Below are positions 677 through 57,763 of a stretch of DNA of 64,000 nucleotides, piece by piece. The notes beneath the pieces are model-generated. The model was not told the origin of the DNA. It saw only the letters and a list, made by a program, of their open reading frames with translations, and did not search any database. How positions within the stretch are numbered: the stretch's first letter is position 1; every line of letters begins with the position of its first letter. Origin of the DNA: an uncultured Bacteroidota bacterium (GTDB lineage Bacteria > Bacteroidota > Bacteroidia > Bacteroidales > JAAUTT01); NCBI GenBank assembly GCA_963846585.1, contig CAWJWO010000018.1:427759-491758 (forward strand), written 5' to 3'. Made by a program: the position numbers and the translations under genes.

Positions 677-1077
677 TTTAGCTGTTAGTTGTTAGTTGTT
701 GGTTTTAAAATAGAACCAAGAGCCATCCTTCGACTTCGCTCAGGAACCAAGAACCAGGAGCCAAGACATGGGACGTGGGAGGACGTGAAAAAGAGGACGT
801 GAAAGGACGTGGGGATTTGAGATTTAAGAATTAAGATTTGCGATTTGTGATATGGTGTTTCTGATTCCACTGATAATTCTATTTTAGAATGATATCCTTC
901 AACTGTTTTCTGTCTTCTGTTTTTCTGTCTTCTTTTTTCTATTACCTGTCTTCTTTAATCTTTCTTCTGTTTCACCTCCCATGTCCCAAGTCTCATGTCT
1001 TTTCATGTCCTTTCACGTCCTTTCACGTCCTTTCACGTCCTTTCATGTCCTTTCATGTCCTTTCATGTCCTTTCATT
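677..1077. repeat. Composite word-array element R1
   Basis: Left half carries GTTAGTT x3, GGAACCAAGAACCAGGAGCCAAGA, GGACGTG units and GATTTGAGATTTAAGAAT. Right half carries TGTCTTC units, then about 7.5 tandem copies of the 10-mer TTTCA[C/T]GTCC (1001-1076). GGACGTG on the left and CACGTCC on the right are reverse complements. Confidence 0.9.
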
Positions 1078-1571: not shown

Positions 1572-1817
1572 ATGGAAGTTTCCGTAGTGCAAATTGGCAA
1601 TTCGAGAGGAATACGATTAAGTAAAACTTTAATAGATAAATATAATATAAAAGATAAGGTTGAGTTAATTCTTGAAAAAGAACAAATGGTGATTAGAGCA
1701 AAACCTGAGCCCAGGAAAGGTTGGGAAATAGGATTTAAAGCAATGCATGATAATGGGGATGACAAACTTTTGATTGATGATATTTTTGAAAATGAAAAGT
1801 TTGAAGAATGGAGTTAA
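1572..1817 (+). CDS. mazE: AbrB/MazE/SpoVT-family antitoxin
   Basis: 81 aa. The N-terminal swapped-hairpin motif VQIGNSRGIRLSKTLIDKY is typical of MazE/AbrB. It overlaps the downstream toxin gene by 10 nt. Confidence 0.85.
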   Translation: MEVSVVQIGNSRGIRLSKTLIDKYNIKDKVELILEKEQMVIRAKPEPRKGWEIGFKAMHDNGDDKLLIDDIFENEKFEEWS

Positions 1818-2131
1818 GTCAATACCAGATAGTTTTAGTAAATCTTGAACCAACTATCGGTTATGAGATTAAAAAGACAAGACCCTGTGTCGTAATATCT
1901 CCAAATGAGATGAACCATTTTCTTGAGACAATTGTAATAGCTCCAATGACAAGTTCGACAAAAAAATATCCCTCACGTATTAAAGTAAATCATGGAAATA
2001 AAATTGGATGGATAGTTCTGGATCAAATACGCACAATTGACAGACAACGCATTATAAAAATATTTGATATTTTAACAGATAAAGAGATTAATAAGGTTAA
2101 GGAAACAATTAAGGAGTTATATGTAGATTAA
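1808..2131 (+). CDS. mazF: MazF/PemK-family endoribonuclease toxin
   Basis: 107 aa. The stretches IVLVNLEPTIGYEIKKTRPCVVISPNEMN and IVAPMTSS...LDQIRTIDRQR match the PemK/MazF fold signature. Translationally coupled to mazE. Confidence 0.85.
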   Translation: MELSQYQIVLVNLEPTIGYEIKKTRPCVVISPNEMNHFLETIVIAPMTSSTKKYPSRIKVNHGNKIGWIVLDQIRTIDRQRIIKIFDILTDKEINKVKETIKELYVD

Positions 2132-2145: not shown

Positions 2146-2331
2146 TGTCATTAGTAATCAGCGATTTGTCATCATTTGCACATCTGCACCTTACTTTTTC
2201 TGCCTTCTGTCCTCTTTTATCTTTGATCTTTCTTCTTTTTCACGTCCTTCACGTCCCTTTTTGTCTTCTGCCTTCTTCTTTTTACTTCTCAAATCTCATA
2301 TGCCATGTCTTGGCTCCTGGTTCTTGGTTCT
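2146..2331. repeat. Composite word-array element R3
   Basis: Ordered words CTGCCTTCTGTC, TTTTATCTTTGATC, CACGTCCTTCACGTCC, GTCTTCTGCC, CTCAAATCTCA, CTTGGCTCCTGGTTCTTGGTTC. The array ends 2 nt from the cysE stop codon. Confidence 0.9.
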
Positions 2332-2333: not shown

Positions 2334-3173
2334 TTAAATTACAAAATTTATCGGTTCCACAAATTTCTTAGAATCACGGATAATGATCGAAGGTTTATGA
2401 TAAACCACTGAAAATGCTGAAACACTTTCGGTTATCCAGGAATTACCTCCCACAACAGTATCGTGTCCAATAATAGTTTGTCCTCCCAGAATAGTGCTCC
2501 CTGCGTAAATAATCACATTATCTTCAATAGTCGGATGTCGTTTTACATTTGTAAGTTCCTTGCCCACATATAAAGCACCTAAAGTAACACCCTGGTATAT
2601 TTTTACATTTTTCCCTATGATAGTTGTTTCACCGATAACTATTCCCGTACCATGATCAATGAAAAAGCTATGGCCGATTTTTGCGCCGGGATGAATATCA
2701 ATCCCGGTCTTAGCATGTGCATATTCAGATATTATCCTTGGTAAAACCGGGATATTCATGTTATAAAGTACATGTGACAAGCGGTATATTGACAATGCAT
2801 AAAATCCGGGATAACATAATATTATTTCTTCAAGGCACTTTGCAGCAGGATCGAATTTCAGATAAGCCTCCGCATCCTTTATAAGTTTGTCATAAATAGT
2901 TGAAACTGTTGAAAAAAAATCGACTGAAAGTTCTTTAACAGTTTTAGGCAATGTAGGTTGCAGGGGTTTCAGCAATTCGTTAAACTGAGCCTGAATATCC
3001 TCCCATTTTGATTCAAAATGGGAAATACTCGCGTTCTTGTCAGCACGGATCGGAAAAAGAAAATTTATAATATCGTTTATAAAATGATGCGTTTTTGCAA
3101 TTGAAGGAACTTCATTGCAAAATGAATGTGTTTTTGAAAATATCCTTTTAGGTAATCCCTTAATTGAATCCAT
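2334..3173 (-). CDS. cysE: Serine O-acetyltransferase (long-form)
   Basis: Hexapeptide-repeat core IHPGAKIGHSFFIDHGTGIVIGETTIIGKNVKIYQGVTLG matches the CysE catalytic region, with an extended helical N-terminus. Confidence 0.85.
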   Translation of the reverse strand: MDSIKGLPKRIFSKTHSFCNEVPSIAKTHHFINDIINFLFPIRADKNASISHFESKWEDIQAQFNELLKPLQPTLPKTVKELSVDFFSTVSTIYDKLIKDAEAYLKFDPAAKCLEEIILCYPGFYALSIYRLSHVLYNMNIPVLPRIISEYAHAKTGIDIHPGAKIGHSFFIDHGTGIVIGETTIIGKNVKIYQGVTLGALYVGKELTNVKRHPTIEDNVIIYAGSTILGGQTIIGHDTVVGGNSWITESVSAFSVVYHKPSIIIRDSKKFVEPINFVI

Positions 3174-12375: not shown

Positions 12376-12663
12376 AATTTGAAAATGAGCAAATGAGCAA
12401 ATGAGTGGAAAAGGACGTGAGACGTGGGACGTGGGACGTGAAAAAAAGGACATGAAAATTAATTTGAAAATTTGAAAATGTGCTAATATAAAAATTTTGT
12501 AATTAACAATTTATTATCTGAATTACGTCTTTTGTCTTCTGTCTTTTGTTTTCTGTCTTCTTTTATCTTTCATCTTTTATCTGTCTTTGTAAGTCTCACG
12601 TCCTTTCATGTCCTTTTTCATGTCCCACGTCCCTTTTTGTCTTGGTTCTTGGTTCTTGGTTCT
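12376..12663. repeat. Composite word-array element R7
   Basis: Left half: AAATGAGC x3, GACGTGR x4, AATTTGAAAATTTGAAAATGTGC. Right half: TGTCTTC units, TTTATCTTT units, CACGTCC/CATGTCC units, CTTGGTT x3. GACGTG/CACGTC form complementary arms. The array ends 15 nt before the porX ATG. Confidence 0.9.
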
Positions 12664-12678
12664 AATAAATATATAATT

Positions 12679-14232: not shown

Positions 14233-14365
14233 TAGTAAGTCGTAAGTATTTATATCTTATTTGCAAGTTACAAGTTGCAGGTTGCAGATTTCAGGTCCTT
14301 TCACGTCCCATGTCCTTTTTTTCACGTCCATTGTCTTTGTTCCTGGCTCTTGGTTCCTGGCTCTA
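14230..14365. repeat. Composite word-array element R8
   Basis: TAGTAGTAAGTCGTAAG (includes the porX stop), GCAAGTTACAAGTTGCAGGTTGCAG, CACGTCC/CATGTCC units, CCTGGCTCTTGGTTCCTGGCTC. It ends 6 nt from the stop of the minus-strand DUF4197 gene. Confidence 0.9.
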
Positions 14366-14371: not shown

Positions 14372-15088
14372 TCAGTTGCCAAACACTTTCTTTAGCAATT
14401 CCGATGTGCGGGCCATAGGATCTTTACGAATCTTATCTTCCTCCTTTGCAATCATTATAAACAATCCGTCAATAGCCTTTCCGGTAACGTATTCAGTAAG
14501 ATTTGGGTTCATTTTCTTAACAAAAGGAATCCTGTTATAAGCTTTAATAAGTTCTTCCCAATGTTTGGTTGCCTCTACCTTATCCAATGAAGCTTTTATT
14601 GAAGGTCTGAATTTTTCGTTTAGTTGAGGCGAGGTGTTTTTTTTGAGATACATGGTAGCTGCATCATTATTGCCTTTCACTATATTGATTGCATCCTTTA
14701 CGCTCATGTTTTTAATTGCATCAATAAATATATCCTTTGCATCCTTTGAAGCATCTTCAGCTGCCCTGTTAAGAGATAAAACCATTTCGTCAACCTGTTT
14801 TCCCATACCTATGGATTTCAGTTTTGACTCCATTTCTTTAGCCTCAGGAGGAAATGGAATTTTAATTTCCGGGTTTCCAAAATAACCATTCTCCTTTGAA
14901 ACAATATTAACACTGTTGCCTGTACCATTTACCAGGGCTTCCTTAATTCCATCAGCAGCTTCGCTCTCACTAAAACCACCGCCATTTTGCCCCATAATTG
15001 CTTTTGCATCATTTAACAATTGTGCTTCCATTTTATTTTCAGCTGTTGTAAACACTACAATTATTAATACCAATAGCATTTTTTTCAT
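14372..15088 (-). CDS. DUF4197 domain secreted protein
   Basis: 238 aa with a signal peptide. The stretch ADGIKEALVNGTGNSVNIVSKENGYFGNPEIKIPFPPEA is typical of DUF4197. Confidence 0.7.
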   Translation of the reverse strand: MKKMLLVLIIVVFTTAENKMEAQLLNDAKAIMGQNGGGFSESEAADGIKEALVNGTGNSVNIVSKENGYFGNPEIKIPFPPEAKEMESKLKSIGMGKQVDEMVLSLNRAAEDASKDAKDIFIDAIKNMSVKDAINIVKGNNDAATMYLKKNTSPQLNEKFRPSIKASLDKVEATKHWEELIKAYNRIPFVKKMNPNLTEYVTGKAIDGLFIMIAKEEDKIRKDPMARTSELLKKVFGN

Positions 15089-15289: not shown

Positions 15290-15381
15290 GGCATATTTAC
15301 ATTCAGAATAATTTGACATTTTTTACAAATCAATAGTGATTTAAAATAAATTTTCTTCAAAATTTTGAATAATCAAAAAAA

Positions 15382-15414: not shown

Positions 15415-15497
15415 CATATTTAAGTTTTAACAGGTATATCGCATTTTGATACTGCTACTAACTAATCCTGAGCAATTAATAATAGTTAATTAATATA

Positions 15498-15617: not shown

Positions 15618-15634
15618 CTTAAACTTCAAAAATT

Positions 15635-16708
15635 ATGACACAATTTGCAGTACTACACATCGAGAAAAACAAGGGCAGTCAAATAGGCTTAAGTAAACAC
15701 ATCAGCCGGGAAACAATCCCTGCAAACGCTGATCCTTCAAGATTGTACCTTAATGAAACTCCTGTTGGTTCAAGGAATCAAATGCAAGACATAAAGGATC
15801 GGATAAAGGAAGGTGTGACTCAAAAAACTGCTATCAGGAAAGATGCAGTAAAAGCAATGCAAATAATTTTAACCGGCAGCCACGAACAGATGAAAGTTAT
15901 TGAAAGCAACGGACTTTTAAAAGACTGGATGAAACAAAATATATCCTGGCTTGATAAAACATTCGGAAAAGCTAACGTAGTGAATGTTACCTTACACATG
16001 GATGAATTAACCCCTCATGTTCATGCTACTGTTGTACCTATAACTTCCGACGGACGATTATGTGCAAAGGATTTCATGTCAAAGGAACACCTGAAAGGTT
16101 ATCAGACAAGTTACGCCAAAGCAATGGAACCTTTTGGCCTGAGCCGCGGTTTGGAAGGAAGCAGGGCTAAACATCAGGATGTAAAACAGTATTACGCTAA
16201 ACTGAATTACGAACTTCCAAAAATTAATAAGGAAATTGAGGAAAAACAAGAAACGGTAAAAGTACTTAAAAATGAAATCAGGGTTGATACAGCCTGGAAA
16301 ACCGTCACAGGTATTGTTGATGGATTTGCAAAGCGAAAAGAAAATAAGGACAAAGAAGATGAAATTGCTTCTTTAAAGAAAACAGCAGAACAACTTTCAA
16401 TTGATCTTAATAATTTACAGAAAGAGTTTGCTAAATCCAAATTAGAATTGAATAATACTAAAAAAGAATTTTCAACTTTACATGCTGAGATAGATAAATC
16501 AATGCAAGAAGGTTTAAAACAAGCCGTCCATACAATTAATCATTTGATATATAGCCAAATTGAAAAACCATTATTTCAATTTGAACTAATATACAAAAAG
16601 GAAAAGCCTGTAATAGAATTAAAACTTATTAAACCAACCAATCATGTGCCTACAGTGGAAGAAATAATGGGCAAAAATGTAAGAAAAAGAAATTTGGAGC
16701 GGTTGTAG
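15635..16708 (+). CDS. MobV-family (Mob_Pre) conjugative relaxase
   Basis: 357 aa. The N-terminal relaxase motifs align with MobM of pMV158: LHIEKNKG...SKHISRE, IRKDAV, and the metal-binding HMDELTPHVHATVVP (HxDE...PHxH). The C-terminal half is coiled-coil. The stop codon lies inside the first GGTTGTAGA repeat word. Confidence 0.85.
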   Translation: MTQFAVLHIEKNKGSQIGLSKHISRETIPANADPSRLYLNETPVGSRNQMQDIKDRIKEGVTQKTAIRKDAVKAMQIILTGSHEQMKVIESNGLLKDWMKQNISWLDKTFGKANVVNVTLHMDELTPHVHATVVPITSDGRLCAKDFMSKEHLKGYQTSYAKAMEPFGLSRGLEGSRAKHQDVKQYYAKLNYELPKINKEIEEKQETVKVLKNEIRVDTAWKTVTGIVDGFAKRKENKDKEDEIASLKKTAEQLSIDLNNLQKEFAKSKLELNNTKKEFSTLHAEIDKSMQEGLKQAVHTINHLIYSQIEKPLFQFELIYKKEKPVIELKLIKPTNHVPTVEEIMGKNVRKRNLERL

Positions 16709-16797
16709 AAAAGGTTGTAGAGGTTATAGAAAAAGGTTGTAGAGGTTGTAGAGGTTGTAGAGGTTGTAGAGGTTGTAGAGGTTGTAAAGGTTGTAGT
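16701..16797. repeat. Tandem 9-mer array R9 (GGTTGTAGA)
   Basis: GGTTGTAGA repeated about 10 times with A-rich interruptions; 5 perfect consecutive copies run from 16735. The TAG of the first unit terminates mob. Confidence 0.9.
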
Positions 16798-16844
16798 TCT
16801 TATAATACTGTTTAGTATCTGTCTTTAAAGTGCATTGTTTGGAT

Positions 16845-16946
16845 CATAAAGTTCGTAGCCGAGGCTTGCGAAGATTAAAAATCAGGAGTTTACTAAAGTA
16901 AATGACTGATTTTTAGGCGAGCGTAACGAAGGATACGGACTTTATG
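16845..16946 (-). repeat. Nested-hairpin repeat, copy C (subfamily 2)
   Basis: Outer stem CATAAAGTTCGTA / TACGGACTTTATG. Inner stem TTAAAAATCAG / CTGATTTTTAG. Core GGAGTTTAC-TAAA-GTAAATGAC. Flanking CGAGGCTTGCGAAG and CGAGCGTAACGAAG. It lies 8 nt downstream of the minus-strand SPOR gene stop. Confidence 0.85.
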
Positions 16947-20512: not shown

Positions 20513-21559
20513 ATGGGTAAGAAAAAAATATTAGTTACCGGTGGAACAGGATATATCGGATCACACACTGCAGTAGAACTTATAAATGAAGGCTTTGATG
20601 TTATAATTGCAGATAACCTTTCCAATTCATCCACTTACTCACTTGATGGAGTGGAAAAAATAACAGGGATTCGTCCTGTATTTGAACAATTCGACCTGTG
20701 TGATAAAAAAAAGGCAAAGGATCTGTTTGTAAAATATCCTGAAATTGAGGCTATTATTCATTTTGCTGCTTCAAAAGCCGTAAATGAATCAGTTGAAAAA
20801 CCTTTATTATATTACCGCAATAATTTTGTTACGCTTATTAATTTACTTGAAATTGTTAACGAAAATCCTGAAATTAAATTTGTATTTTCTTCATCTTGTA
20901 CAGTTTATGGACAACCTGATTATTTACCAGTCACAGAAAATTCTCCTGTTAAAAAAGCAACCTCTCCATATGGCAATACAAAACAGGTTTCAGAAGAAAT
21001 AATTCAGGATATATGCGCTGCCAATCCTCAGGTTATGGCCATATCACTTAGGTATTTTAATCCTATAGGTGCACACAACTCTGCAATTATTGGTGAACTT
21101 CCTCTTGGTGTTCCGCAAAACCTGGTTCCATTTATTACTCAAACTGCCATTGGCCTTCGCGAACAGCTTAAAGTATTTGGCGACGATTATAATACTCCGG
21201 ATGGTTCATGTATCAGAGATTATATTCATGTGGTAGATCTTGCGAAAGCCCATGTAATTGCAATTAAACGACTTATAAATAAAAAAAACAAGGCTTGTTA
21301 TGAGGTTTTTAACCTTGGCACAGGACGCGGGGTTTCGGTACTTGAACTCATAGATGTTTTTCAAAAAACTACCGGGGTTAACCTTAATTATAAAATAGTG
21401 GGCCGACGAATGGGCGATATAGAAAAAGTTTGGGCCGATACCAAATCAGCCAATGAAGAACTAGGCTGGAAAGCTGAAAGCACACTCGAAGAAACCATTC
21501 TTTCGGCATGGAACTGGGAAAAGTACTACCGCAATATAGTAGTAAGTCGAAATCAGTAA
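20513..21559 (+). CDS. galE: UDP-glucose 4-epimerase
   Basis: 348 aa. Contains GGTGYIGSH, SSSCTVYG, and the catalytic YGNTK (YxxxK). The start codon abuts the previous stop. Confidence 0.9.
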   Translation: MGKKKILVTGGTGYIGSHTAVELINEGFDVIIADNLSNSSTYSLDGVEKITGIRPVFEQFDLCDKKKAKDLFVKYPEIEAIIHFAASKAVNESVEKPLLYYRNNFVTLINLLEIVNENPEIKFVFSSSCTVYGQPDYLPVTENSPVKKATSPYGNTKQVSEEIIQDICAANPQVMAISLRYFNPIGAHNSAIIGELPLGVPQNLVPFITQTAIGLREQLKVFGDDYNTPDGSCIRDYIHVVDLAKAHVIAIKRLINKKNKACYEVFNLGTGRGVSVLELIDVFQKTTGVNLNYKIVGRRMGDIEKVWADTKSANEELGWKAESTLEETILSAWNWEKYYRNIVVSRNQ

Positions 21560-21773
21560 AACGAATTTTAGAACCAGAAACCAAGAGCCAGGAACCAAGA
21601 CAAAATACAGAAGACAGAAAACAAAAGAAAAATGATTTAATAATTAAGCATCGAGTTTTATAACTTGTATTTACGTAATACTTAAATCTCAACTCTAGAA
21701 TCTTAAATCACTAGCCACTAGTACCTGAACCTGTGTCCCTTATCTTGGTTCCTGGTTCTTGGTTCCTGGCTCC
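21560..21773. repeat. Composite palindromic word-array element R11 (homologous to R16)
   Basis: Outer arms AGAACCAGAAACCAAGAGCCAGGAACCAAGA (left) and CTTGGTTCCTGGTTCTTGGTTCCTGGCTCC (right) are complementary. The interior order CAGAAGACAG / TTAAGCATCGAGTTTTA / CTTAAATC / CACTAGCCACTAG parallels 29269-29457. Confidence 0.9.
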
Positions 21774-21797
21774 ATTTTAAAGATCAATTTAGTTCAT

Positions 21798-22853
21798 ATG
21801 AAAAAGACAATTATTATTACCGGTGGTGCCGGATTTATTGGTTCACATATTGTACGGCTTTTTGTAACAAAATACCCGCATTATAATGTCATTAACCTGG
21901 ATAAGCTTACTTATGCAGGAAACCTTGAAAATCTGAAGGATGTTGATAAATTGCCTAATTATAAATTTGTAAAGGCTGATATTACTGATATTGAAGAAAT
22001 AAACCGCGTATTTGTGAAATTTAAACCTGACGGGATTATTCATCTTGCTGCTGAATCACATGTTGACAGATCAATTGCCAATCCGATGGAATTTATCCAT
22101 ACAAATGTAATTGGCACTGTTGTACTATTAAATGCAGCACGGGAAACCTGGAAAGATAATTTTGACAATAAACGCTTTTATCATATTTCTACCGACGAAG
22201 TTTATGGATCGCTTGGCAATAAAGGTCTGTTTACCGAACAAACACCTTATGGCCCACGTAGCCCTTATTCATCTTCCAAAGCCAGTTCCGACCATTTGGC
22301 CAGGGCATATTTCCATACTTATAATTTACCCGTGGTTGTATCAAATTGTTCAAATAATTATGGCCCCAATCAGTTCCCTGAAAAGTTAATTCCACTGTCA
22401 ATCAACAATATAAAAATTAATAAAACTATACCAATATATGGGAAAGGAGAAAATATCCGCGACTGGCTTTTTGTTATTGATCATGCACGGGCAATTGATT
22501 TGATTTATCATAAAGGGAAAACCGGAGAAACATATAATATTGGTGGCAACAATGAGTGGACAAACATCGATCTTATAAAACTTCTTTGTAAGATCATGGA
22601 CAGTAAATTAAAGCGTTACCCCGGCACATCCGCGAAGCTGATTACATTTGTCAAAGACCGTGCCGGGCACGATTTACGGTACGCTATCGACTCCTCAAAA
22701 CTTCAGAATGAACTAGGTTGGGCTCCTTATTTACAATTTGAAGAAGGACTCGGAAAAACGGTCGACTGGTACCTCGAAAATGAAGTGTGGCTCGGAAATG
22801 TTCTATCAGGAGAATATGAAAAATATTACCGGCAGCAGTATGTAAAAAGATAA
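21798..22853 (+). CDS. rfbB: dTDP-glucose 4,6-dehydratase
   Basis: Start moved to the ATG at 21798 (MKKTIIITGGAGFIGSH). Contains STDEVYG and YSSSKASSD (YxxxK). The upstream 13 codons of the ORF track are repeat-encoded. Confidence 0.9.
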   Translation: MKKTIIITGGAGFIGSHIVRLFVTKYPHYNVINLDKLTYAGNLENLKDVDKLPNYKFVKADITDIEEINRVFVKFKPDGIIHLAAESHVDRSIANPMEFIHTNVIGTVVLLNAARETWKDNFDNKRFYHISTDEVYGSLGNKGLFTEQTPYGPRSPYSSSKASSDHLARAYFHTYNLPVVVSNCSNNYGPNQFPEKLIPLSINNIKINKTIPIYGKGENIRDWLFVIDHARAIDLIYHKGKTGETYNIGGNNEWTNIDLIKLLCKIMDSKLKRYPGTSAKLITFVKDRAGHDLRYAIDSSKLQNELGWAPYLQFEEGLGKTVDWYLENEVWLGNVLSGEYEKYYRQQYVKR

Positions 22854-24775: not shown

Positions 24776-24813
24776 ACAATTAATATTTTTACAAATAACC
24801 TTCGAATTTAAAA

Positions 24814-26680: not shown

Positions 26681-27043
26681 ATGACAATTGAAGTTTTAAA
26701 ATCAAAAATACACAGGGTAACCGTAACTGATGCAAACCTTAATTACATAGGCAGCGTTACCATAGATGAGGATCTGTTGGTTGCAGCCAATCTTATTGAA
26801 TTTGAAAAAGTTCAGGTAGTAAATATTAATAATGGCAAACGTTTGGAAACATACATAATAAAAGGCGAAAGAGGTTCAGGCGTGATTTGCCTTAACGGGC
26901 CTGCAGCAAGACAAGTTGCAGTAGGTGATATAGTCATAATTATGTCTTTTGCCAGCATGGATTTTGAAGAAGCTAAAAAGTTTAAACCTGTAATTGTGTA
27001 TCCGGATACTGCCACTAACTCGTTAATAGTGCATAGTGTTTAG
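26681..27043 (+). CDS. panD: Aspartate 1-decarboxylase
   Basis: 120 aa. Contains KIHRVTVT and the self-processing site YIGSVTID. The last ~6 codons (LIVHSV*) are encoded by ATAGTGCATAGTG-type repeat words. Confidence 0.9.
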
Positions 27044-27160
27044 TGCTTAGTGCTTAGTTGCTGGTTGCCAGTAAAAAGTGATGAGGTGATGAAGTAATGA
27101 AGTGATTATGTGATTAGGTTTATAAGATTTTCTATAAACCTTATAAACCTTATAAACTCA
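27027..27160. repeat. Composite word-array element R14
   Basis: AGTGCAT/AGTGCTT 7-mers (spanning the panD stop), GCTGGTTGC, GTGATGAR 8-mers, and TTATAAACC 9-mers. Followed immediately by 58-nt element copy 2. Confidence 0.9.
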
Positions 27161-27218
27161 TTTTCAAATTTGCACATTTCTTGCCCTGAGCGTAGTCGAA
27201 GGGTCAAATTTTCAAATT
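27161..27218 (+). repeat. 58-nt element, copy 2
   Basis: Identical over 58 nt to 3233-3290. It ends 11 nt before the ATG at 27230. Confidence 0.9.
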
Positions 27219-27906: not shown

Positions 27907-29268
27907 ATGGCCAAAGAACATACAGTATATATATGTCAGCGATGCGGGGCTGAATCCGCTAAATGGATAGGTCGCTGCCCTTCTTGCAATGAATGGAATA
28001 CCTATACAGAAGAAATTATCCAAAAACAATTGACAAGAAATTCTGCCGTTCCAGGCAGAGGATATTCTAAACCTGTATCTCTTGATGAAATATCTGCAAT
28101 TCATGAATCCCGGTTAGATACAAATATAAATGAATTGAACAGGGTACTTGGTGGTGGAATGGTTCGTGGTTCATTAATCCTACTTGGTGGCGAACCAGGT
28201 ATAGGTAAGTCAACTCTCGCTTTACAGCTTGCGTTAGGGTTTAATAATGTAAAAGTATTATATATTACTGGTGAAGAAAGCCTTCAACAAATAAAACTAC
28301 GTGCAGAACGTATACACTCAAAAAGTAATAATTGCTTATTTGCCAATGAAACATCACTTGAAAATATCCTCGGATTATGCCAAAGCGAGCTTCCTGATCT
28401 GGTAATAATAGACTCAATACAGACTATTTCTGCAGAATCCCTGGAATCAGCAAATGGAAGCGTTTCCCAGGTGCGTGAATGTACCAATGCCCTGCTGCGA
28501 TTTGCTAAAAGCTCTGATACGACTATCCTGCTTATTGGACACATTACCAAAGAAGGTTACCTGGCAGGTCCAAAAGCCATGGAACACATTGTTGATGTTG
28601 TTTTACAATTTGAGGGCGACAATCAGCATATTTACCGTATTCTGCGCCCAAGTAAAAATCGTTTCGGATCTATTACCGAGATTGGAATTTTTGAAATGTG
28701 CAATGAAGGATTAAAGGAAATTTCCAATCCGTCGGAAATACTTATTTCATCTAACGAAGAACAATTAAGTGGTGTAAGTATAGCAGCTACAATAGACGGT
28801 ATAAGGCCATTTCTGATTGAAGTTCAATCATTGGTCAGTACGGCAGCCTACGGAACTCCGCAACGTTCATCCACAGGTTTTGATATCCGGCGATTAAATA
28901 TGTTGCTGGCCGTTCTTGAAAAACGGGCTGGTTTTAAACTTGCCTCCAAGGATGTTTTTTTAAACATTACCGGTGGAATAAAAGTCGACGACCCCGCTAT
29001 AGACTTGGCTATTATTACTTCAATATTATCTTCAAACCTTGATATTTATGTAAACCATAAGTATTGCTTCGCTGGCGAAATTGGCCTTTCAGGGGAAATC
29101 CGGCCGGTTAACCGTATAGATCAACGTATAAGAGAAGCCGAAAAACTGGGCTTTAATAAAATATTCTTCTCTAAAGCCAATAACAGCGGTTTATCAGCTT
29201 CTAAACATAAAATTGAATTGGTTCCTATTGGTAAAGTTGAACATCTGTTTCATAAATTATTCAAATAA
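27907..29268 (+). CDS. radA: DNA repair protein RadA
   Basis: 453 aa. N-terminal C4 zinc finger CQRCG...CPSC, Walker A GGEPGIGKST, the KNRFG motif, and a Lon-like C-terminal domain. Confidence 0.95.
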   Translation: MAKEHTVYICQRCGAESAKWIGRCPSCNEWNTYTEEIIQKQLTRNSAVPGRGYSKPVSLDEISAIHESRLDTNINELNRVLGGGMVRGSLILLGGEPGIGKSTLALQLALGFNNVKVLYITGEESLQQIKLRAERIHSKSNNCLFANETSLENILGLCQSELPDLVIIDSIQTISAESLESANGSVSQVRECTNALLRFAKSSDTTILLIGHITKEGYLAGPKAMEHIVDVVLQFEGDNQHIYRILRPSKNRFGSITEIGIFEMCNEGLKEISNPSEILISSNEEQLSGVSIAATIDGIRPFLIEVQSLVSTAAYGTPQRSSTGFDIRRLNMLLAVLEKRAGFKLASKDVFLNITGGIKVDDPAIDLAIITSILSSNLDIYVNHKYCFAGEIGLSGEIRPVNRIDQRIREAEKLGFNKIFFSKANNSGLSASKHKIELVPIGKVEHLFHKLFK

Positions 29269-29457
29269 AATGGAACCAAGAACCAGGAACCAAGAGAAAA
29301 GAAGGCAGATGGCAGAAGATAAAAGATAAAAAAATTTAGAATTAAGAATCGAGATTTTAGATTTGTAATTTATGAATGCCTAAATCCGTAATTCACTAGC
29401 CACTAGTCCCTGGCCACTAGCCCCATTTCCTGGTTCTTGGTTCCTGGTTCCTGGTTC
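29269..29457. repeat. Composite palindromic word-array element R16 (homologous to R11)
   Basis: Left arm GGAACCAAGAACCAGGAACCAAGAG (29272-29296). Right arm TTCCTGGTTCTTGGTTCCTGGTTCCTGGTTC (29427-29457). The interior carries GGCAGAAGATAAAAGATAAAA / TTAGAATTAAGAATCGAGATTTTAGATTTG / CACTAGCCACTAGTCCCTGGCCACTAGCC. Confidence 0.9.
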
Positions 29458-29463
29458 TATTAA

Positions 29464-31158
29464 TTAAACTTACAATTTACGACAAACAACCTGCTACATA
29501 TCTCCGGCCTCGACATCGATTTCATACAAACTGGAATAAGGAAATCCATTTGCCGGAATCTGAATTTTTCAATTGCCAATGGTGAAACAGTTGGCATTTT
29601 AGGAGAATCCGGTTCGGGAAAATCAATAACTGCCCTTTCTGTATTAGGCCTTTTACCTCCTTCCCTTAAGGTTTCGGGAGGCAATATTTTATTTGCAAGG
29701 CCGGATGGTTCGATAATTAACCTTGCACAATCCACAGTTAAAACATTACAATCAGTCAGGGGAAAAGAAATTTCGATGGTTTTCCAGGAACCTATGACAT
29801 CGCTTAACCCTGTTTATTCATGCGGTGACCAGGTATTGGAAACTATTTTGCAACATAAGGTTTGTGAAGGGGATTTTTTTATCAGACAAATAAAAAACTC
29901 AAATAATATAAAAGAAGCCAGGGATAAGGTATTATCATTGTTTAATAAAGTCAGGCTTAAGGATCCTATAAAAATATATAATAGTTATCCGTATCAGCTT
30001 TCGGGAGGCCAGAGACAAAGAATAATGATCGCAATGGCTGTATCATGTAATCCCCGGTTGTTATTAGCTGATGAACCTACAACTGCACTGGATGTATCTG
30101 TACAACAATCAATTCTTGAGTTAATTGGCGAACTGCAGGCCGAAACAGGAATGAGCATTTTATTTATATCACACAATATTAATGTAGTATCAGAAATTGC
30201 AAAACGGGTTCTTATATTAAAGAATGGCGAGATTGTTGAACAAGGTGATATATCTCAGGTGATGTCAAATCCTGAACATTCTTACACCCGTGGATTAATT
30301 GCCTGCAGTAAATCAATAAGGGATAAAGGAAAGCGGTTGGTAACTATGGAAGAATTTATTAATCTGAATGATAAAGATAATAAGGATAATAAGAATGAAC
30401 AGAATATTTCTGAAAAATATTTAAATACAGATATCCAACAAAATGTACCTGTACTGAGAATAAAAAATCTGACAGTTAATTTTAAACATTCAACAGGACT
30501 ATTTGGAAAATCAAATACTAAAGAAATCCTTCACAATATAAATCTTGAAGTGTTCCAAAACGAAACCATCGGACTTGTTGGAGAATCAGGATCCGGTAAA
30601 ACAACCCTTGGACGGTCAATTATGAAACTGATCGGTTTCCAAAGAGGAGATATTTTCTATAATGGTATGCCAATCAACCTGCTCTCAGGAAAAGAATTGA
30701 AAAATTTTCACCGGAAAGTTCAGATTATATTCCAGGACCCATATTCATCATTAAATCCCAGGTTTACTATCGGGCAAATGATTACCGAACCCATGGTAGT
30801 TCACCGGTTATTTAAAAATAAATCTAAACGTAAAAAACGTGTCCTTGAGTTATTAAAACAGGTCAACCTTGATGAAAATTATTATTACCGTTACCCTCAT
30901 CAGTTATCGGGAGGACAAAGACAAAGAATTGGCATAGCACGGGCACTGGCAGTTGAACCTGAATTACTGATACTAGACGAATCAGTTTCTGCACTTGATG
31001 TATCAATTCAGGCTCAGGTACTTAACCTGCTTAATGATTTAAAGGGTTTATACAAGCTTACATATATTTTTATATCTCACGATTTGGATATAGTTAGATA
31101 CATGTCTGACCGGCTTGTGGAATTGAAAGAAGGCCGGATAGTTGCAAGTCGTAAGTAG
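29464..31158 (+). CDS. ABC transporter ATP-binding protein with two fused ATPase domains (DppD/DppF-YejF-like); 5' end unresolved
   Basis: The frame is open from the stop at 29461. First Walker A GESGSGKS at ~29605, signature LSGGQRQR twice, second Walker A GESGSGKTT. There is no in-frame ATG/GTG/TTG upstream of the first Walker A (only CTG at 29491), so the ORF-track ATG at 29776 is internal. The last codons and stop lie in a GTAAGTC word array. Confidence 0.8.
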   Translation, partial: LNLQFTTNNLLHISGLDIDFIQTGIRKSICRNLNFSIANGETVGILGESGSGKSITALSVLGLLPPSLKVSGGNILFARPDGSIINLAQSTVKTLQSVRGKEISMVFQEPMTSLNPVYSCGDQVLETILQHKVCEGDFFIRQIKNSNNIKEARDKVLSLFNKVRLKDPIKIYNSYPYQLSGGQRQRIMIAMAVSCNPRLLLADEPTTALDVSVQQSILELIGELQAETGMSILFISHNINVVSEIAKRVLILKNGEIVEQGDISQVMSNPEHSYTRGLIACSKSIRDKGKRLVTMEEFINLNDKDNKDNKNEQNISEKYLNTDIQQNVPVLRIKNLTVNFKHSTGLFGKSNTKEILHNINLEVFQNETIGLVGESGSGKTTLGRSIMKLIGFQRGDIFYNGMPINLLSGKELKNFHRKVQIIFQDPYSSLNPRFTIGQMITEPMVVHRLFKNKSKRKKRVLELLKQVNLDENYYYRYPHQLSGGQRQRIGIARALAVEPELLILDESVSALDVSIQAQVLNLLNDLKGLYKLTYIFISHDLDIVRYMSDRLVELKEGRIVASRK

Positions 31159-31463
31159 TAAGTCGTAAGCCGTAAGAAAAGAGAAGGCAGAAGACAGAAG
31201 GCAGAATGAGACGTGAGACATGAGACGTAGGAAGTGAGACGTGGGACGTGAGACATGGAAATAATTTGAAAATGTGTTAATTTGAAAATTTGTAAATGAA
31301 AGCAATTAAAATCTCAAATCACGAATCTTAAATCTCAAATCACCAAATCACCTTTTCCACGTCTTTCCATGTCTTTCCATGTCCTTCCATGTCCCCTTTG
31401 TATATTCCACATCTCACGTCTCACGTCTCATGTCCCTTTTCCTAATTCTTGGTTCTTGGTTCC
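31146..31463. repeat. Composite word-array element R17
   Basis: GTAAGTC 7-mers; GAAGGCAGAAGACAGAAGGCAGA; GAGACGTGAGACATGAGACGTAG... 7-mers; AATTTGAAAATGTG; ATCTCAAATCACGAATCTTAAATCTCAAATC; CCATGTCTTT 10-mers; CACGTCT 7-mers; TTCTTGGTTCTTGGTTCC. GACGTG/CACGTC arms are complementary. Confidence 0.9.
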
Positions 31464-31464
31464 A

Positions 31465-31522
31465 ATTTCAAATTAGCACATTTCTTGCCCTGAGCGTAGT
31501 CGAAGGGTCAAATTTTCAAATT
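31465..31522 (+). repeat. 58-nt element, copy 3
   Basis: Two mismatches relative to copies 1 and 2. Its last 2 nt overlap the stop codon of the minus-strand PBP1A gene. Confidence 0.9.
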
Positions 31523-40066: not shown

Positions 40067-40186
40067 TGCCTTTAAGAAACTGTCAATTTCTGCGTTAGGC
40101 TCATCATCAAAATGCTCATTTACTATCAGTAAACTCCGCTTTTGATGATTTCGCAAGCCTTGAACTTGACAGTTTCTTTAATGTCA
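40066..40186 (+). repeat. Nested-hairpin repeat, copy D (subfamily 2) in the gldK-gldL gap
   Basis: Outer stem GTGCCTTTAAGAAACTGTCAA / TTGACAGTTTCTTTAATGTCAC. Inner stem TCATCATCAAAA / TTTTGATGA. Core GCTCATTTAC-TATCA-GTAAACTCC. The flanks GCGTTAGGCTC and TTCGCAAGCCT match the reverse complement of copy C. It starts on the last base of the gldK stop. Confidence 0.9.
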
Positions 40187-50813: not shown

Positions 50814-50965
50814 CACTGAGACACAGAGCCACAGAGAAATAAATTGAAATATATTTTTTTCTTTCCTCTTTCTTCTTTTATCTTTTATCTTTTATCTGTC
50901 GTCTGTCTTCTTTTTCACGTCCCTTTCACGTCCCATGTCTTGGCTCCTGGTTCCTGGTTCTTGAT
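50814..50965. repeat. Composite word-array element R22
   Basis: Ordered modules CACTGAGACACAGAGCCACAGAG / AAATAAATTGAAATATATTTTTTT / CTTTCCTCT / TTTTATC x3 / TGTCGTCTGTCTTC / CACGTCCCTTTCACGTCC / CTTGGCTCCTGGTTCCTGGTTC. It ends 7 nt from the wzc stop. Confidence 0.9.
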
Positions 50966-50972
50966 TCTATTT

Positions 50973-53348
50973 TCATATTCCCTGAAATATTCTCTTTATC
51001 ATCCGCTGTCTCCAGGTCGGCTTTTTATGATCAGAATAATAATCATTGTAAATATCACTATATCCATAGTTATAGCTGTATTTTTTCCCGTATGCATAAT
51101 ATGAATTCACTTTAACATCGTTGATGAGAATACCTATATTAGGTACATTTCTCTTGTTACTAAGCTCATCAACCAGGTACAGGACATCCCTCGGTGAATA
51201 ATTATGCCTTATTACAAAAATATTGGCATCCGAATACCTGCTAAGTAAAATAGCATCGGTTACAATGGCAATTGGCGGTGTATCAATTAAGATAAAATCA
51301 AATTCATTTTTTGCCCTCGTTATAAACTTTTCCATCAGTTCAGTATCAAGCAGTTCTGAAGGATTCGGCGGTATAGGCCCGGATACGGAGACGTATAAAT
51401 GATCAATATTGGTAGGTTTAATAATATCTTCATAAGACGTTTTCCCTATCAGGTATGTACTTAATCCCACCTTGTTATCAATATTAAATATCTTATGTAT
51501 TTTGGGTTTTCTAAGGTCAAGGCTTAAAAGCAAGGTCTTTTTTTGAGCCTGGGCCAAAATAGCTGCCAGATTTATTACACAGAACGTCTTCCCTTCACCG
51601 CTCATGGTAGAGGACATACAAATCACCTTTTTTTCTTTATCCCGTAATATATATTGCAAGTTTGTTCTTAAAGCCCTGAATGATTCAGCAATAGTAGACT
51701 TTGAGTTATCAGCTACCGGAATGTCAGAAGATTTATCGTTATGCCCGACCGATCCGAAAATAGGTACCTTGGTAAGTTTTTCAATAACTTTAACATCATT
51801 AATTTTATTATTAAAAAATTCTAAAAGAAATAGTATCGATAAAGGAAACAATAAACCCAATACTATTGCTACCATCTTATTTTTTGATTCCAGAGGGGCT
51901 ATTTGTACAGTACTATAGGCTGATGCTTCATCCAAAACTTTATTATCTGCCACATTTGAAGCTTTTGAAATGGCGGCTTCGGCTCTTTTTTGCAATAGAA
52001 AGTTATAAATCTGGTCGTTTAATTTAAAATCCCTTTGAATATTTAATAATCTGCGCTCAGTTACGGGTAATTTTTGCAATTCTTCTTCAATTGATGCTTC
52101 CTGGTTAGAAATTTCATTCAGGCTTATTTTTGCGGAATTAATTATTTCATTAATGTTTTCCTGTAACGCTTTCATAGTATTTTGAATCTTTGCATTCAGG
52201 AGGGTAAGACTTGGATTATCATCCTGAGCATTCATAATCAATATACTCCTTTCTGAATAAAGCCTGCTTAACTCAGTAATCAGGGAATTTAAAAGCGCAT
52301 CGCTAATACCCATTATGGCAGGTGCAATAACATCTTTAAAGTCTTTCCTTTTCTGTATATAGTCCTGTACATATTTGTAATATCTCAGCTGAATTTCAGC
52401 TGTCGCCCTGTCTTCCTGAACCTTTTCAAGTTTTGATTTAATTGCCGAACCCTCGGTTGTAAGATCAACTACTTTATTGTTTAACCTGAATATCTGAAGC
52501 TTATCCTCTGCTCTTCTTAATGAATCAACAACAGTCGATAATTGATTGTCGATAAAATTAATAGTATTAATAGCTGTCTGGTTTTTTTCCTCCAAACCCA
52601 TTCTTATATATACTTCCATTAATTTATTAATATAATCGGCCTCCATTTGAGGAACCAAACCGGTAGTGCTTAGAGTTAAAACTGTCCCTCTTTTATCGTT
52701 GGTCGCTATATTTAATTTATTCCGGTAATTGTTTGTAAGACTCCCTATATCATTAAATATAAAGAAATATTTATTTGTGTTGGAAGGCTCTTTTATATAA
52801 ACCTTAAAATTGAAATTACCATCACTATACCTCTCCTTAAACTTTAATATTTTACTTATTTTATGCTTACCATCAATCTCCAGTTTATATTCATCTTTTG
52901 ATAAAATAGTTATTTCTACCGGATATTCTTTCAAATTATATGAACCGGAATCCACCACTATATAAAAAGGAGCTGATTTATATTGCATTGGTTTTCTTAT
53001 AGTACCAACACTGAAATAACTAATGTCAAAATCCTTTAATTCCCGTAACGCCTTGCTTGCCATTTTATACGATTTAAGAATGGCAATTTCATTATCGATG
53101 TTTTTTCTTGCACTTAGCCTGTCAATAGAACTAATTAACACCTCAGCGGCAGATTTTTTTTCATCGTTAATAAGCAAGGTGGCACTTACACTGTATACAG
53201 GATCGGCATAATAATTAATAAAATAGGCAACTATATAAGCTATTGTCAGTGAAATAACAAACCAATACCATTTATTTAATATCTTATAAATAAATTTTCT
53301 AATATCAATGGCTTCTTCCGGTGAAGAATAATTCACTTGGTTTTCCAT
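50973..53348 (-). CDS. wzc: Polysaccharide co-polymerase / tyrosine autokinase (Wzc-like)
   Basis: 791 aa. Wzz-type N-terminal domain with 2 TM helices and a long coiled-coil, C-terminal BY-kinase with Walker A SGEGKT, and a Tyr-rich tail YYAYGKKYSYNYGYSDIYNDYY. Confidence 0.85.
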   Translation of the reverse strand: MENQVNYSSPEEAIDIRKFIYKILNKWYWFVISLTIAYIVAYFINYYADPVYSVSATLLINDEKKSAAEVLISSIDRLSARKNIDNEIAILKSYKMASKALRELKDFDISYFSVGTIRKPMQYKSAPFYIVVDSGSYNLKEYPVEITILSKDEYKLEIDGKHKISKILKFKERYSDGNFNFKVYIKEPSNTNKYFFIFNDIGSLTNNYRNKLNIATNDKRGTVLTLSTTGLVPQMEADYINKLMEVYIRMGLEEKNQTAINTINFIDNQLSTVVDSLRRAEDKLQIFRLNNKVVDLTTEGSAIKSKLEKVQEDRATAEIQLRYYKYVQDYIQKRKDFKDVIAPAIMGISDALLNSLITELSRLYSERSILIMNAQDDNPSLTLLNAKIQNTMKALQENINEIINSAKISLNEISNQEASIEEELQKLPVTERRLLNIQRDFKLNDQIYNFLLQKRAEAAISKASNVADNKVLDEASAYSTVQIAPLESKNKMVAIVLGLLFPLSILFLLEFFNNKINDVKVIEKLTKVPIFGSVGHNDKSSDIPVADNSKSTIAESFRALRTNLQYILRDKEKKVICMSSTMSGEGKTFCVINLAAILAQAQKKTLLLSLDLRKPKIHKIFNIDNKVGLSTYLIGKTSYEDIIKPTNIDHLYVSVSGPIPPNPSELLDTELMEKFITRAKNEFDFILIDTPPIAIVTDAILLSRYSDANIFVIRHNYSPRDVLYLVDELSNKRNVPNIGILINDVKVNSYYAYGKKYSYNYGYSDIYNDYYSDHKKPTWRQRMIKRIFQGI

Positions 53349-54297: not shown

Positions 54298-54888
54298 ATG
54301 TTTTCAGGTATTGTAGAAGAAGCTGCCACAGTAGTATCAATTGAAAAAGACCGTGATAATTTGAATATTACCCTGTCCTGTTCTTTTGTTAACGAACTAA
54401 AAACCGATCAAAGCTTATCTCATAACGGGGTTTGTCTTACAGTTGTTAAAAAAGATACAAATACATACACTGTAACAGCTATTGCAGAAACACTTTTAAA
54501 ATCAAATTTGGGCATAGTCATTACGGGCGATAAAGTTAACGTTGAACGAAGCATGAAATTAAATGACAGGCTGGACGGTCATCTTGTACTGGGACATGTA
54601 GATCAAACTGCCGTTTGTAAAAAAGTAATTGAAGTGGAAGGCAGCTGGTATTATACATTTTCGTACGATCCTTCCACAAACAATATAACTGTGGAAAAAG
54701 GTTCTATAACGGTTAACGGGGTTAGTTTAACGGTTGTTAATTCACAAAATGGCTCCTTTCAGGCAGCAATTATCCCATACACCTATTATCACACTAATTT
54801 TCAGCAAATAAAGCCAGGAAATATAGTTAACCTCGAATTCGATATCATTGGTAAGTATGTGGCCCGGTTATTGTCATCTGTTAAGTAG
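54298..54888 (+). CDS. ribE: Riboflavin synthase alpha chain
   Basis: 196 aa. Starts MFSGIVEE, with duplicated lumazine-binding repeats (SLSHNGVCLTV / ITVNGVSLTV). Confidence 0.9.
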   Translation: MFSGIVEEAATVVSIEKDRDNLNITLSCSFVNELKTDQSLSHNGVCLTVVKKDTNTYTVTAIAETLLKSNLGIVITGDKVNVERSMKLNDRLDGHLVLGHVDQTAVCKKVIEVEGSWYYTFSYDPSTNNITVEKGSITVNGVSLTVVNSQNGSFQAAIIPYTYYHTNFQQIKPGNIVNLEFDIIGKYVARLLSSVK

Positions 54889-54998
54889 TTTGTTACCTGA
54901 TAGATCCAAGAGCCAAGAACCAGGAGCCAAGATAGAAAACAGAAGACAGAGGAAAGAAAAAATATATATTTCAATTGATTTCTCTGTGCCTCTGTGTT
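54886..54998. repeat. Composite word-array element R23 (inverted relative to R22)
   Basis: CCAAGAGCCAAGAACCAGGAGCCAAGA / AGAAAACAGAAGACAGAGG / AAAGAAAAAATATATATTTCAATTGATTTCTCTGTGCCTCTGTGTTTAG. It is the reverse complement of the R22 module order, lacking the CACGTCC block. Confidence 0.9.
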
Positions 54999-56926: not shown

Positions 56927-57763
56927 TTAACGGTTAACTTTCCTGGCTCCTGGTTCCTGGTTCCTGGCTCTGTTCAGATAATGGTACTTAGATTGAGGGT
57001 TTACCTCGCTTACAATTTTCTTTACATAAAACATTGAAATATTTATATGTCTTAAAAATTTGCTTTTTTGGTCATCCTGATCCAAAATAAATCCTTTAAT
57101 AATATTATTTTTCTTGTTTTTTATCCTTTTCGAAACCTGGTATAATTTTACTTTTGCCGATCTGTTATAATTGATTTTCTCAAAGTAATCAGCCGGATTA
57201 ATTTTATCCTTGTTATTTTTGATGGTATTGTATGCAGTAAACCCTATATTTTTAGACTGGTCGTCATTAAATATTTGTATCTGAATTGTTATTTCATATA
57301 ACCCGGTATCTTTTACAGCTATTTCAAAAGGAATTTTTTCAGCAAATCCTTTCCCCTCAAGTTTAATATTAATCTTCCCTTTATACAAATTTCCTGCCGA
57401 ATCCAGAATTAATGACCTTATGATATAAATATCCTGGCTCATCCGGTTTAACTCTGTTAATACTTCATCATATATTTCCTCATAACTTTTTGGTTTTATT
57501 TTAGAATAATACGATAAAGAACTATCGAACTGAACCTTAGTAATCCCGTTTTTATCAAAAATCTGCTTATAGAAATCATTATTATACTTACCGGCATTAT
57601 TTTGGTTTGAATGCATCATATAATATGCATCTGCAAGTTGAATGTCTATAAGTAAATCTTTAAGCTTTGCTGCCGGAATTATTTGGATTTTAGTTTTATG
57701 ATTGCACGACCACCCAAAACAAATTATAATGACAAAAACTATTATCCTTTTTACATTTCTCAT
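56927..57763 (-). CDS. Lipoprotein with N-terminal DUF4296-like domain
   Basis: 278 aa. Lipobox FGWSC. The stretch KLKDLLIDIQLADAYY...YKQIFDKNGITKVQFDSSLSYY is DUF4296-like. The start overlaps the sprF-like stop (ATGA). The last ~10 codons (NQEPGARKVNR*) are encoded by a CCTGGTT word array. Confidence 0.65.
   Translation of the reverse strand: MRNVKRIIVFVIIICFGWSCNHKTKIQIIPAAKLKDLLIDIQLADAYYMMHSNQNNAGKYNNDFYKQIFDKNGITKVQFDSSLSYYSKIKPKSYEEIYDEVLTELNRMSQDIYIIRSLILDSAGNLYKGKINIKLEGKGFAEKIPFEIAVKDTGLYEITIQIQIFNDDQSKNIGFTAYNTIKNNKDKINPADYFEKINYNRSAKVKLYQVSKRIKNKKNNIIKGFILDQDDQKSKFLRHINISMFYVKKIVSEVNPQSKYHYLNRARNQEPGARKVNR
56940..56970. repeat. Word array R24 (TTCCTGGCTCCTGGTTCCTGGTTCCTGGCTC)
   Basis: CCTGGTT/CCTGGCT 7-mers lying inside the 3' end of the lipoprotein ORF. 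Confidence 0.85.

Follow-up and report, generated by a model that had tools for sequence, protein, structure and literature searches.

Two diverged copies of a foldback unit built of inverted heptamer arrays after radA and a galE-like gene in an uncultured Bacteroidales bacterium

Among the long simple repeats of bacteria, heptamers are the most common. To our knowledge, no origin or function has been accepted for them after more than 30 years. The GGGAATC heptamers of Xanthomonas lie 0-50 bp from stop codons (coding strand) and start codons (non-coding strand), often occur as inverted convergent pairs capable of forming stem-loops, and vary from one close relative to the next (Rehm et al. 2015, PMC4692102). 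For Bacteroidetes, 'larger assemblages of heptamer repeats' were described from spacers whose counterparts in close relatives are shorter and free of repeats, and near-identical repeat-filled spacers were found at two loci of Elizabethkingia (MacGregor 2015, PMC4679880). That study was centred on TAACTGA upstream of start codons; neither inverted arms nor a phase or GA anchor nor GARCCAR appear in its description (PMC4679880). REP sequences are single palindromes of 20-40 nt with GTAG/CGTC tags (PMC3116915, PMC3733652). BrickBuilt of Porphyromonas gingivalis, also from the Bacteroidales, contains a tandem repeat, a 23-nt minisatellite bounded by unique leader and tail units that have small inverted ends (PMC4596501).

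The genome studied here is an extreme natural case of such repeats, with multi-heptamer stacks that are ordered, keep one phase and a GA anchor, and have near-absolute inward polarity. The window, meaning the whole stretch of 64,000 nucleotides that was analysed, has a G+C content of approximately 35%. The tract after radA (radA tract) and the tract after a galE-like epimerase gene (galE tract) were both found at the positions given in the original prediction (Table 1). Its claims that the two are homologous with the same internal order, and that their outermost arms are reverse complements of each other, were also borne out. When aligned with MAFFT, the tracts had a mean column identity of 82%, and both ran in the order GGAACCAAG-type arm, CAGAAGR/GATAAAA words, TTAAGAATCGAGATTTTA versus TTAAGCATCGAGTTTTA, (C)CTAAATC/CTTAAATC, an identical TCACTAGCCACTAGT and a CTTGGTTCC-type arm. 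The centre of the galE tract carried a 13-nt insertion relative to the radA tract. With the arms removed, the interiors aligned collinearly over approximately 115 nt with a local score of 69, against 18.4 ± 2.9 in dinucleotide shuffles (z = 17). The two tracts were mutual best matches among all spacer tracts of the window, and the remaining tracts scored far lower against either copy. They also have a 15-mer in common, and the word CACTAGC is found in the window only in these two tracts.

Every word concerned is short and recurs in many spacers, which is what would be expected if two low-complexity, AT-rich spacers had come to resemble each other by chance through independent slippage from one local word pool. 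This candidate was rejected by the interior alignment test, and with seven features in one order, a 15-mer and a private word shared by the two tracts, it is highly improbable. The result supports the view that the tracts are diverged copies of a single definable unit whose ends are inverted, and not two independent slippage products; as the tracts are true paralogues, a copying event took place. Full two-sided copies numbered two in 74 kb (the window plus 10 kb of extra flank, L325); the extra flank contained more arrays and no third full copy. Exact matches to the RadA protein were present in five metagenome-assembled contigs of one strain, and its nearest named relatives came from MAGs with the labels Bacteroidales or Bacteroidota. 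The tract was identical in four independent assemblies of that strain (99.96-100% identity, all with the same unit numbers), so its sequence is not an assembly artefact.

Table 1. Positions in the window of the focal tracts, their parts and neighbouring genes, and of further GARCCAR arrays.
Feature	Position	Strand	Description
radA	27907..29268	+	RadA/Sms Pfam domains; tract starts at its stop codon
radA tract	29269-29457		After radA; placed as originally predicted
radA tract, left arm	29269..29297	+	(TAA)AATG, three GAACCAR (29273-29293), GAG; predicted to pair with right arm
radA tract, inner left stack	29298..29331	+	Diverged heptamers in arm phase, GA anchor (TRF period 7)
radA tract, centre	29332..29392	+	Degenerate ATTTRA-type heptamers including TTAAGAATCGAGATTTTA; lag-7 identity 0.61 vs 0.31 ± 0.06
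radA tract, inner right stack	29393..29426	+	CACTAGC/CCCTGGC heptamers (reverse complement GCTAGTG)
radA tract, right arm	29427..29457	+	Four YTGGTTC (reverse complement GAACCAR), end GGTTCTATT
ABC-ATPase gene	29491..31158	+	Downstream of radA tract; CTG 29491 is first plausible start
Epimerase ('galE') gene	20513..21559	+	Upstream of second copy
galE tract	21560..21773	+	Paralogous copy, after galE-like epimerase gene
galE tract, arms	left 21571-21598, right 21745-21772		Internal order as in radA tract
GARCCAR array	744..764	+	Heads GA-phased stack (A, GACRTGG, GATTTGA); no inverted GARCCAR partner in spacer
GARCCAR array	2310..2330	-	Directly 3' of stop, ORF 2334..3173(-); no inverted GARCCAR partner in spacer
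GARCCAR array	12642..12662	-	Right edge of 12374-12689 spacer; no left GARCCAR partner
GARCCAR array	14343..14363	-	Directly 3' of stop, ORF 14372..15088(-)
GARCCAR array	31449..31462	-	Heads right half of convergent spacer 31159-31520
GARCCAR array	50940..50967	-	Directly 3' of stop, ORF 50973..53348(-); stack homologous to that at 54903
GARCCAR array	54903..54930	+	14 nt past stop of ORF 54298..54888
GARCCAR array	56943..56970	-	Last codons of ORF 56927..57763(-)

The arms of both tracts consist of GARCCAR heptamers, tandem and variable in number, with three to four on the left and four YTGGYTC on the right. They are predicted to pair as terminal stems of 27-28 bp enclosing approximately 130 nt, and the two tracts fold with minimum free energies of -65.7 and -65.6 kcal/mol (z = -6.8 and -8.6). 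TRF reported period 7 or 14 over the whole radA tract, and period 7 with 4.4 copies at 91% in its right arm. Each half is a polar stack that begins with a sharp outer edge by the ORF and continues with three to four near-perfect GARCCAR units followed by increasingly diverged heptamers. The inner units of the left half (GAGAAAA, GAAGGCA, GAAGATA, GATTTTA) retain the 7-nt phase and the GA anchor, the inner left stack of the radA tract reading GAGAAAA GAAGGCA GATGGCA GAAGATA AAAGATA. On the complementary strand, the inner units of the right half are GGCTAGT, GACTAGT and GGATTTA. Lag-7 identity of the focal tracts, centre included, was 0.50-0.61 against 0.28-0.31; taken across the tract it was 0.53-0.60. 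The centre is thus itself 7-nt periodic, and the element is without a unique, non-repetitive core: from end to end it is two inverted, degenerate heptamer arrays.

The same design recurred at other array heads. The pattern (GARCCAR)x2+GARCC had 13 matches in the window, with 0 expected. All 13 arrays begin at a spacer edge and read inward behind a flank such as AAAATA, AAAATG or TTAATA; nine lie directly past a stop codon in sense orientation, and four, including the right arms of both focal tracts, lie antisense upstream of a + strand gene. No inverted GARCCAR partner was present in the same spacer for 9 of the 13, and GARCCAR occurs on both sides of a spacer only in the two focal tracts. The radA stop codon TAA (29266-29268) belongs to a recurring terminus, AAAAT[AG]GARCC. 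Recurrence of the right terminus as GGYTCYAWT at six other gene borders had been predicted. This motif was indeed enriched (14 matches in the window against 5.0 ± 2.4 expected) and stood at array termini in eight cases (709, 2326, 12658, 14359, 21768, 29269, 29453 and 31458), but one of the predicted sites, 50965, reads GATTCTATT and has one mismatch. Beyond the GARCCAR head blocks, 53 of 137 GA dinucleotides fell in phase 0 (p = 1e-14, 12 further units), the in-phase units beginning with GA as in GACATGG, GACGTGA, GACAGAA, GAAGGCA, GATTTGA and GACTAGT. The lag-7 identity profile was 0.35 outside, increased to 0.74 in the outer head block and then stayed at approximately 0.5 inward for at least 130 nt.

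Short-period repeats gave 118 TRF rows in the window. With word classes defined by hand-written patterns, the word map placed 75 arrays in spacers, which total 6.4 kb, and 4 in genes, which total 57 kb. Arrays covered 40% of bases in tandem (-> ->) spacers, 44% in convergent and 7% in divergent ones; within coding sequence they covered 108 nt. Inward orientation was found in 68 of the 75, the purine-rich version of each word occupying the 5' half of the spacer on either strand. Divergent, promoter-only spacers were array-free and well conserved between the window and its closest relative (L005). The system is lineage-specific, and its stacks fill almost every spacer after a gene's 3' end. Among - strand tandem spacers (e.g. 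24776-24813, 47243-47296 and 53349-53364), 0 of 7 <- <- spacers carried arrays against 15 of 24 -> -> spacers; these seven are all short (293 nt in total), and the absence of arrays may only reflect operon packing.

A strong fold (z -3.6 to -8.6) was predicted for spacers whose two stacks have words in common, and z was about 0 for spacers with one-sided arrays or with unrelated words on the two sides. Long-range hairpins were predicted for both focal tracts and for the spacers at 676, 12374, 26557, 27722 and 31159, and no structure was predicted for half of the array-bearing spacers. Since only spacers with complementary stacks fold, the hairpin is a property of some tracts and not of the whole system. 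An intrinsic terminator consists of a short GC-rich stem with a loop of 3-8 nt, followed by a U-tract. No terminator-like site was found in 21560-21808 or 29269-29490, and counts in the window were at chance level. The sigma-70 promoter scan likewise stayed at chance level and placed no site in either tract. Rfam 15 gave 0 matches at the gathering score over the whole window, and a tRNA scan found none.

Gene starts were taken from ORF calls plus orthologue alignments. The ABC-ATPase gene lacks its original start: AAC (29488-29490) aligns with the ATG of the orthologues on L005 and L008, and no in-frame ATG, GTG or TTG is present between the stop at 29461-29463 and 29776. Translation may start at the CTG at 29491; the region is identical in the four assemblies. 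The panD ORF continues for six codons within a TAGTGCW array and then stops (27020-27043), and the end of the DUF4296 gene, ...EQSQEPGTRSQES*, falls within a GARCCAR array (56927-56970). Tracts of this kind therefore shift predicted gene starts and stops, through loss of a start or entry of ORFs into arrays.

Synteny around radA was kept in contigs whose RadA proteins are 88, 88, 85, 83, 80 and 77% identical. Empty sites in relatives had been proposed as a check, and in this species-level comparison the radA-ABC junction was empty in three relatives, the two genes being 4 nt apart in L008, overlapping by 4 nt in L010 and 29 nt apart in L324. The junctions of panC-panD-CTP transferase-radA-ABC measured 9, 3, 3 and -4 nt in L010 against 124, 186, 185 and 222 nt in the window, where all four are array-filled. 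No orthologues of the focal tracts were detectable in L005 (z = 0.1 for both spacers). The panC-panD palindromes of the window and L005 were marginally alignable (z = 3.0). An apparent common terminus of window and L005, TTTTAGAAYC, was rejected as not significant. The junction between radA and the ABC gene is a hotspot, with a palindromic filler of a different kind in each of three related species. In L005 (11363-11457) it holds a 95-nt palindrome of GTAGGAAA-type words, in L323 (1442-1665) a 224-nt palindrome without arrays, and in L012 (11360-11443) an 84-nt spacer with inverted AAGAATG...CATTCTT ends.

Beyond the lineage, (GARCCAR)x3+GARCC was present at at least 113 loci in 185,579 species genomes, where approximately 0.03 would be expected by chance on our own estimate. 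Among the matches listed, the phyla included Verrucomicrobiota, Planctomycetota, Acidobacteriota, Chloroflexota, Bacteroidota, Proteobacteria, Cyanobacteria and others, and the arrays often stood beside other heptamer arrays, sometimes with an inverted partner (19 of 92 arrays of other genomes). Cultivable relatives that carry such arrays include Kordia algicida OT-1, Proteiniphilum sp. X52 and Chryseobacterium pennipullorum. Downstream of the listed arrays, GA fell in phase 0 in 263 cases against 72-96 in the other phases. At listed loci of 52% G+C or less with callable ORFs, the array lay just after the stop on the coding strand in 11 cases and on the non-coding strand in 1. A universal purine-rich 5' to pyrimidine-rich 3' polarity for GARCCAR was rejected, both polarities occurring elsewhere (7 vs 11 among the matches listed). 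The array vocabulary differs between genomes; no other word of this genome was shared across phyla, and the selected word alone recurs.

GARCCAR arrays of four or more units were also common on viral-class contigs of IMG/VR (L126-L245). There the pattern had at least 120 matches, against 12 and 65 for the two scrambles of the same composition that made up the composition control; heptamer arrays being common in general, the excess indicates enrichment and not uniqueness. No inverted partner was found within 600 nt of the 99 testable IMG/VR arrays among the matches listed. The family-specific pattern CACTAGCCACTAG..TGGTTCYTGGTTC had 0 matches in JGI metagenomes. Because GARCCAR arrays are so widespread, the arms are instances of a common heptamer array and not a private transposase site. 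Higher-order repeats of heptamer stacks, head to tail and three to five in a row, were seen in Sphingobacteriaceae/Daejeonella MAGs (L093, L097, L102). Their unit consists of [GAACCAR]n, GACTGT..GTGCTAATTGAAAATTTTCTGC, [CAGACCT/CATACCT]n and [CAGATAA/CAGACAA]n, an arrangement of heptamer stacks that differs from that of the window.

Several other features were recorded in the window. A repeat of approximately 57 nt, TTTCAAATTTGCACATTTCTTGCCCTGAGCGTAGTCGAAGGGTCAAATTTTCAAATT, occurs in three copies (3234-3290, 27162-27218 and 31466-31522) of 83-100% identity; two of the three abut word arrays, and a CCCT...AGGG hairpin lies inside the repeat. The GTGCTAATTTGAAA stretch of the repeat (reverse complement) is likewise found behind GAACCAR arrays in MAGs of Daejeonella and Sphingobacteriaceae. 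An internally palindromic element of 113 nt forms an 88% inverted pair at 7455-7567 and 15509-15621, 7.9 kb apart, and related hairpin cores (TCATTTAC..GTAAA) are present at 40071-40181, at 16860-16930 and in L325 (7289-7629). This element is more like a conventional MITE or REP-type sequence than the focal tracts are. A MazF/PemK toxin gene (1808..2131) and an overlapping small upstream ORF (1572..1817), probably its antitoxin, lie as a pair (1572-2131) between two array-filled spacers. Tandem repeats of 243 nt (81 codons; 84-89% identity) occupy 62905-64000 (L326 1-10004) within a gene for a 3368-aa SprB/Ig_7/CHU_C adhesin that runs off the window, that flank being one giant gene. Genes for T9SS and gliding (PorP/SprF, GldL/M/N and the giant SprB-like adhesin) are present and fit Bacteroidota.

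The explanation that we favour, with a little better than even confidence, is that the tracts are lineage-specific foldbacks of heptamer simple-sequence repeats, which grew by slippage and were copied as whole units by recombination through their perfect arms. Replication slippage on 7-nt units would create and extend the arrays, with the newest or most homogenised units at the outer edge; periodicity, phase continuity and the identity gradient were observed, and from these we infer slippage. Two stacks could then meet head to head, or template switching could duplicate one stack in inverted form, and the complementary arms of the product would pair as a stem of 27-28 bp in either single-stranded DNA or RNA made by read-through. 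Folding predicts this pairing, and either event may account for the mirror-image arms. The entire two-armed unit would subsequently have been copied once between the galE and radA spacers, by ectopic recombination or gene conversion seeded by perfect arm arrays of 21-28 nt and with no dedicated transposase. The collinear homology demonstrates the copying, for which we consider recombination the most likely route. Slippage is the likely origin of the unit because the flanking duplication is inconsistent, the arms are a common heptamer, there is no unique core and no transposase was found in 74 kb. Any effect on expression, such as that of a 3'-end hairpin separating genes whose translation is coupled in relatives, would probably be a by-product and not the reason for the element.

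The copying of a whole unit with inverted ends, which is MITE behaviour, speaks against the favoured reading, as do the equal unit numbers of the four assemblies of one strain, in which there is no sign of ongoing slippage. The original prediction had called the tracts a MITE-type element and named target-site duplications and a transposase as things to look for. The inverted ends, the copied unit and the empty sites are all present. A 6-nt direct repeat (ATTTTA) flanks the galE copy and none flanks the radA copy, so there is no target-site duplication of constant length across the two copies. No transposase domain was detected with Pfam in the ORFs of the window or of the 10 kb extra flank, which together represent 74 kb of a multi-megabase genome, and no Y1/HUH transposase was found in the window. 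A REP-type palindrome of 20-40 nt with a GTAG/CGTC tag is absent from both tracts. The label 'MITE-type' is therefore not supported for the tracts. The sole mobility-type protein of the window is a Mob_Pre (MobV-type) relaxase (15635..16708, within 15089-16805), and nothing ties it to the tracts. The 546-nt spacer before its gene is highly structured (z -10) with repeated GTCCCTGACGGGAC-type hairpins, and nine copies of the 9-mer AGGTTGTAG follow the gene, overlapping its stop. Readings as integron attC sites or CRISPR were dropped, as the flanks are syntenic housekeeping genes and no spacers are present.

A non-autonomous transposon (MITE or REPIN-like) is nonetheless one rival to slippage and recombination: a transposase encoded elsewhere in the genome would recognise the GARCCAR arms or their hairpin and move the unit of 190-215 nt into AT-rich sites just past stop codons. 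The two collinear copies with inverted termini, the strong predicted foldback and the empty sites agree with it, and the conserved AAAAT[AG]GARCC terminus and the ATTTTA repeat could be transposition signatures. A second module pair, 8291-8413 and 27073-27170, lies in opposite orientations. We consider this rival unlikely, given the radA copy without a duplication, the variable unit number and cosmopolitan heptamer of the arms, the nine window arrays without an inverted partner, the repetitive centre, the lack of a transposase in the window and its 10 kb flank, and a total of two copies in 74 kb with a family-specific pattern unmatched in JGI metagenomes. A selected cis-acting RNA or DNA element is equally doubtful. 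On this view, the heptamer stacks would be kept for their function as signals in 3' UTRs or between cistrons, either as a register-tolerant hairpin that blocks exonucleases or insulates genes, or as binding sites for a protein reading approximately 7 nt per subunit (cold-shock or S1-type). The strand and position rule of the arrays, in the window and past stops elsewhere among the matches listed, and the GA anchor kept in phase across different words are in its favour. So is the panC-panD palindrome of GTAGRAAA-type words, which in the window and in the 88% relative has different units and still paired arms. S1, Csp and CsrA have been proposed as heptamer binders (MacGregor, PMC4679880). Half of the array-bearing spacers are without predicted structure, neither tract has a U-tract or canonical terminator, Rfam matches are lacking and the vocabulary differs between genomes, all of which count against selection; moreover, the arrays invade junctions that in relatives measure 3-9 nt or overlap, and are thus dispensable.

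The selected element and the other readings are not mutually exclusive. Strict inward polarity and the conserved GA anchor would not be predicted by neutral slippage alone and hint at selection or a directional process; they are explained by none of the readings considered here. It is quite improbable, on our assessment, that the GA-anchored polar stacks are the footprint of an undescribed directional process or factor, with the two-armed units as its mobile or self-copying form and a prokaryotic counterpart of Foldback. Candidates, at the same low probability, would be polymerase- or primase-linked extension of arrays at gene ends, or a conserved RNA or single-stranded DNA binder reading 7 nt per subunit. 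The colonisation by stacks of spacers after gene 3' ends, and the position of GARCCAR past stops on the coding strand in many phyla, point to such a process.

In this genome, arrays have invaded gene junctions in an operon whose relatives are tightly packed, and copying has carried one composite unit, at least, from one locus to another. With this order, polarity, invasion and copying, the system could serve to distinguish among slippage, recombination and transposition as the origin of intergenic repeats, and could test the action of arrays on mRNA 3' ends. Such tracts will mislead MITE finders.

Compared with known systems, the closest architectural analogues are the eukaryotic transposons of the Foldback/Galileo type, which have long inverted termini of short tandem subrepeats that vary in length between copies (PMC4079207, PMC3573991). 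The likeness is an analogy only, those elements being eukaryotic and kilobase-scale, with identified transposases and target-site duplications. Like REP/BIME sequences and the REPINs associated with RAYT transposases, which are extragenic palindromes that cluster past genes, sometimes as inverted doublets, and form mRNA hairpins (PMC3116915, PMC3733652), the tracts lie between genes; unlike REPs, the window units are tandem heptamers, with no such tag and no RAYT-like gene in the window. The focal tracts share with bacterial MITEs, BrickBuilt included (PMC4596501), that they are small, non-coding, intergenic and multi-copy with inverted ends. Unlike in BrickBuilt, the ends are themselves the tandem repeat and nothing is unique, and no target-site duplication or cognate transposase was found in the 74 kb. 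With the assemblages of MacGregor the arrays share their occurrence in Bacteroidota, the presence of several heptamers side by side in one spacer, the recurrence of a repeat-filled spacer at two loci and the shorter spacers free of repeats in close relatives. With intergenic heptamer simple-sequence repeats (the long repeats of Mrazek 2007, Xanthomonas GGGAATC and cyanobacterial STRR) they share the 7-nt unit, the almost exclusively intergenic position at ORF ends with a strand rule, the frequent inverted pairs and the lack of conservation in close relatives. They differ from these in having stacks of many words that follow a GARCCAR head block with a recurring order and a single phase, in an extreme density of 40-44% of spacer bases past gene 3' ends, in words that are not G4-forming and in a composite unit copied between loci. 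Overall, the tracts look more like runaway simple-sequence repeats than like a classical mobile MITE.
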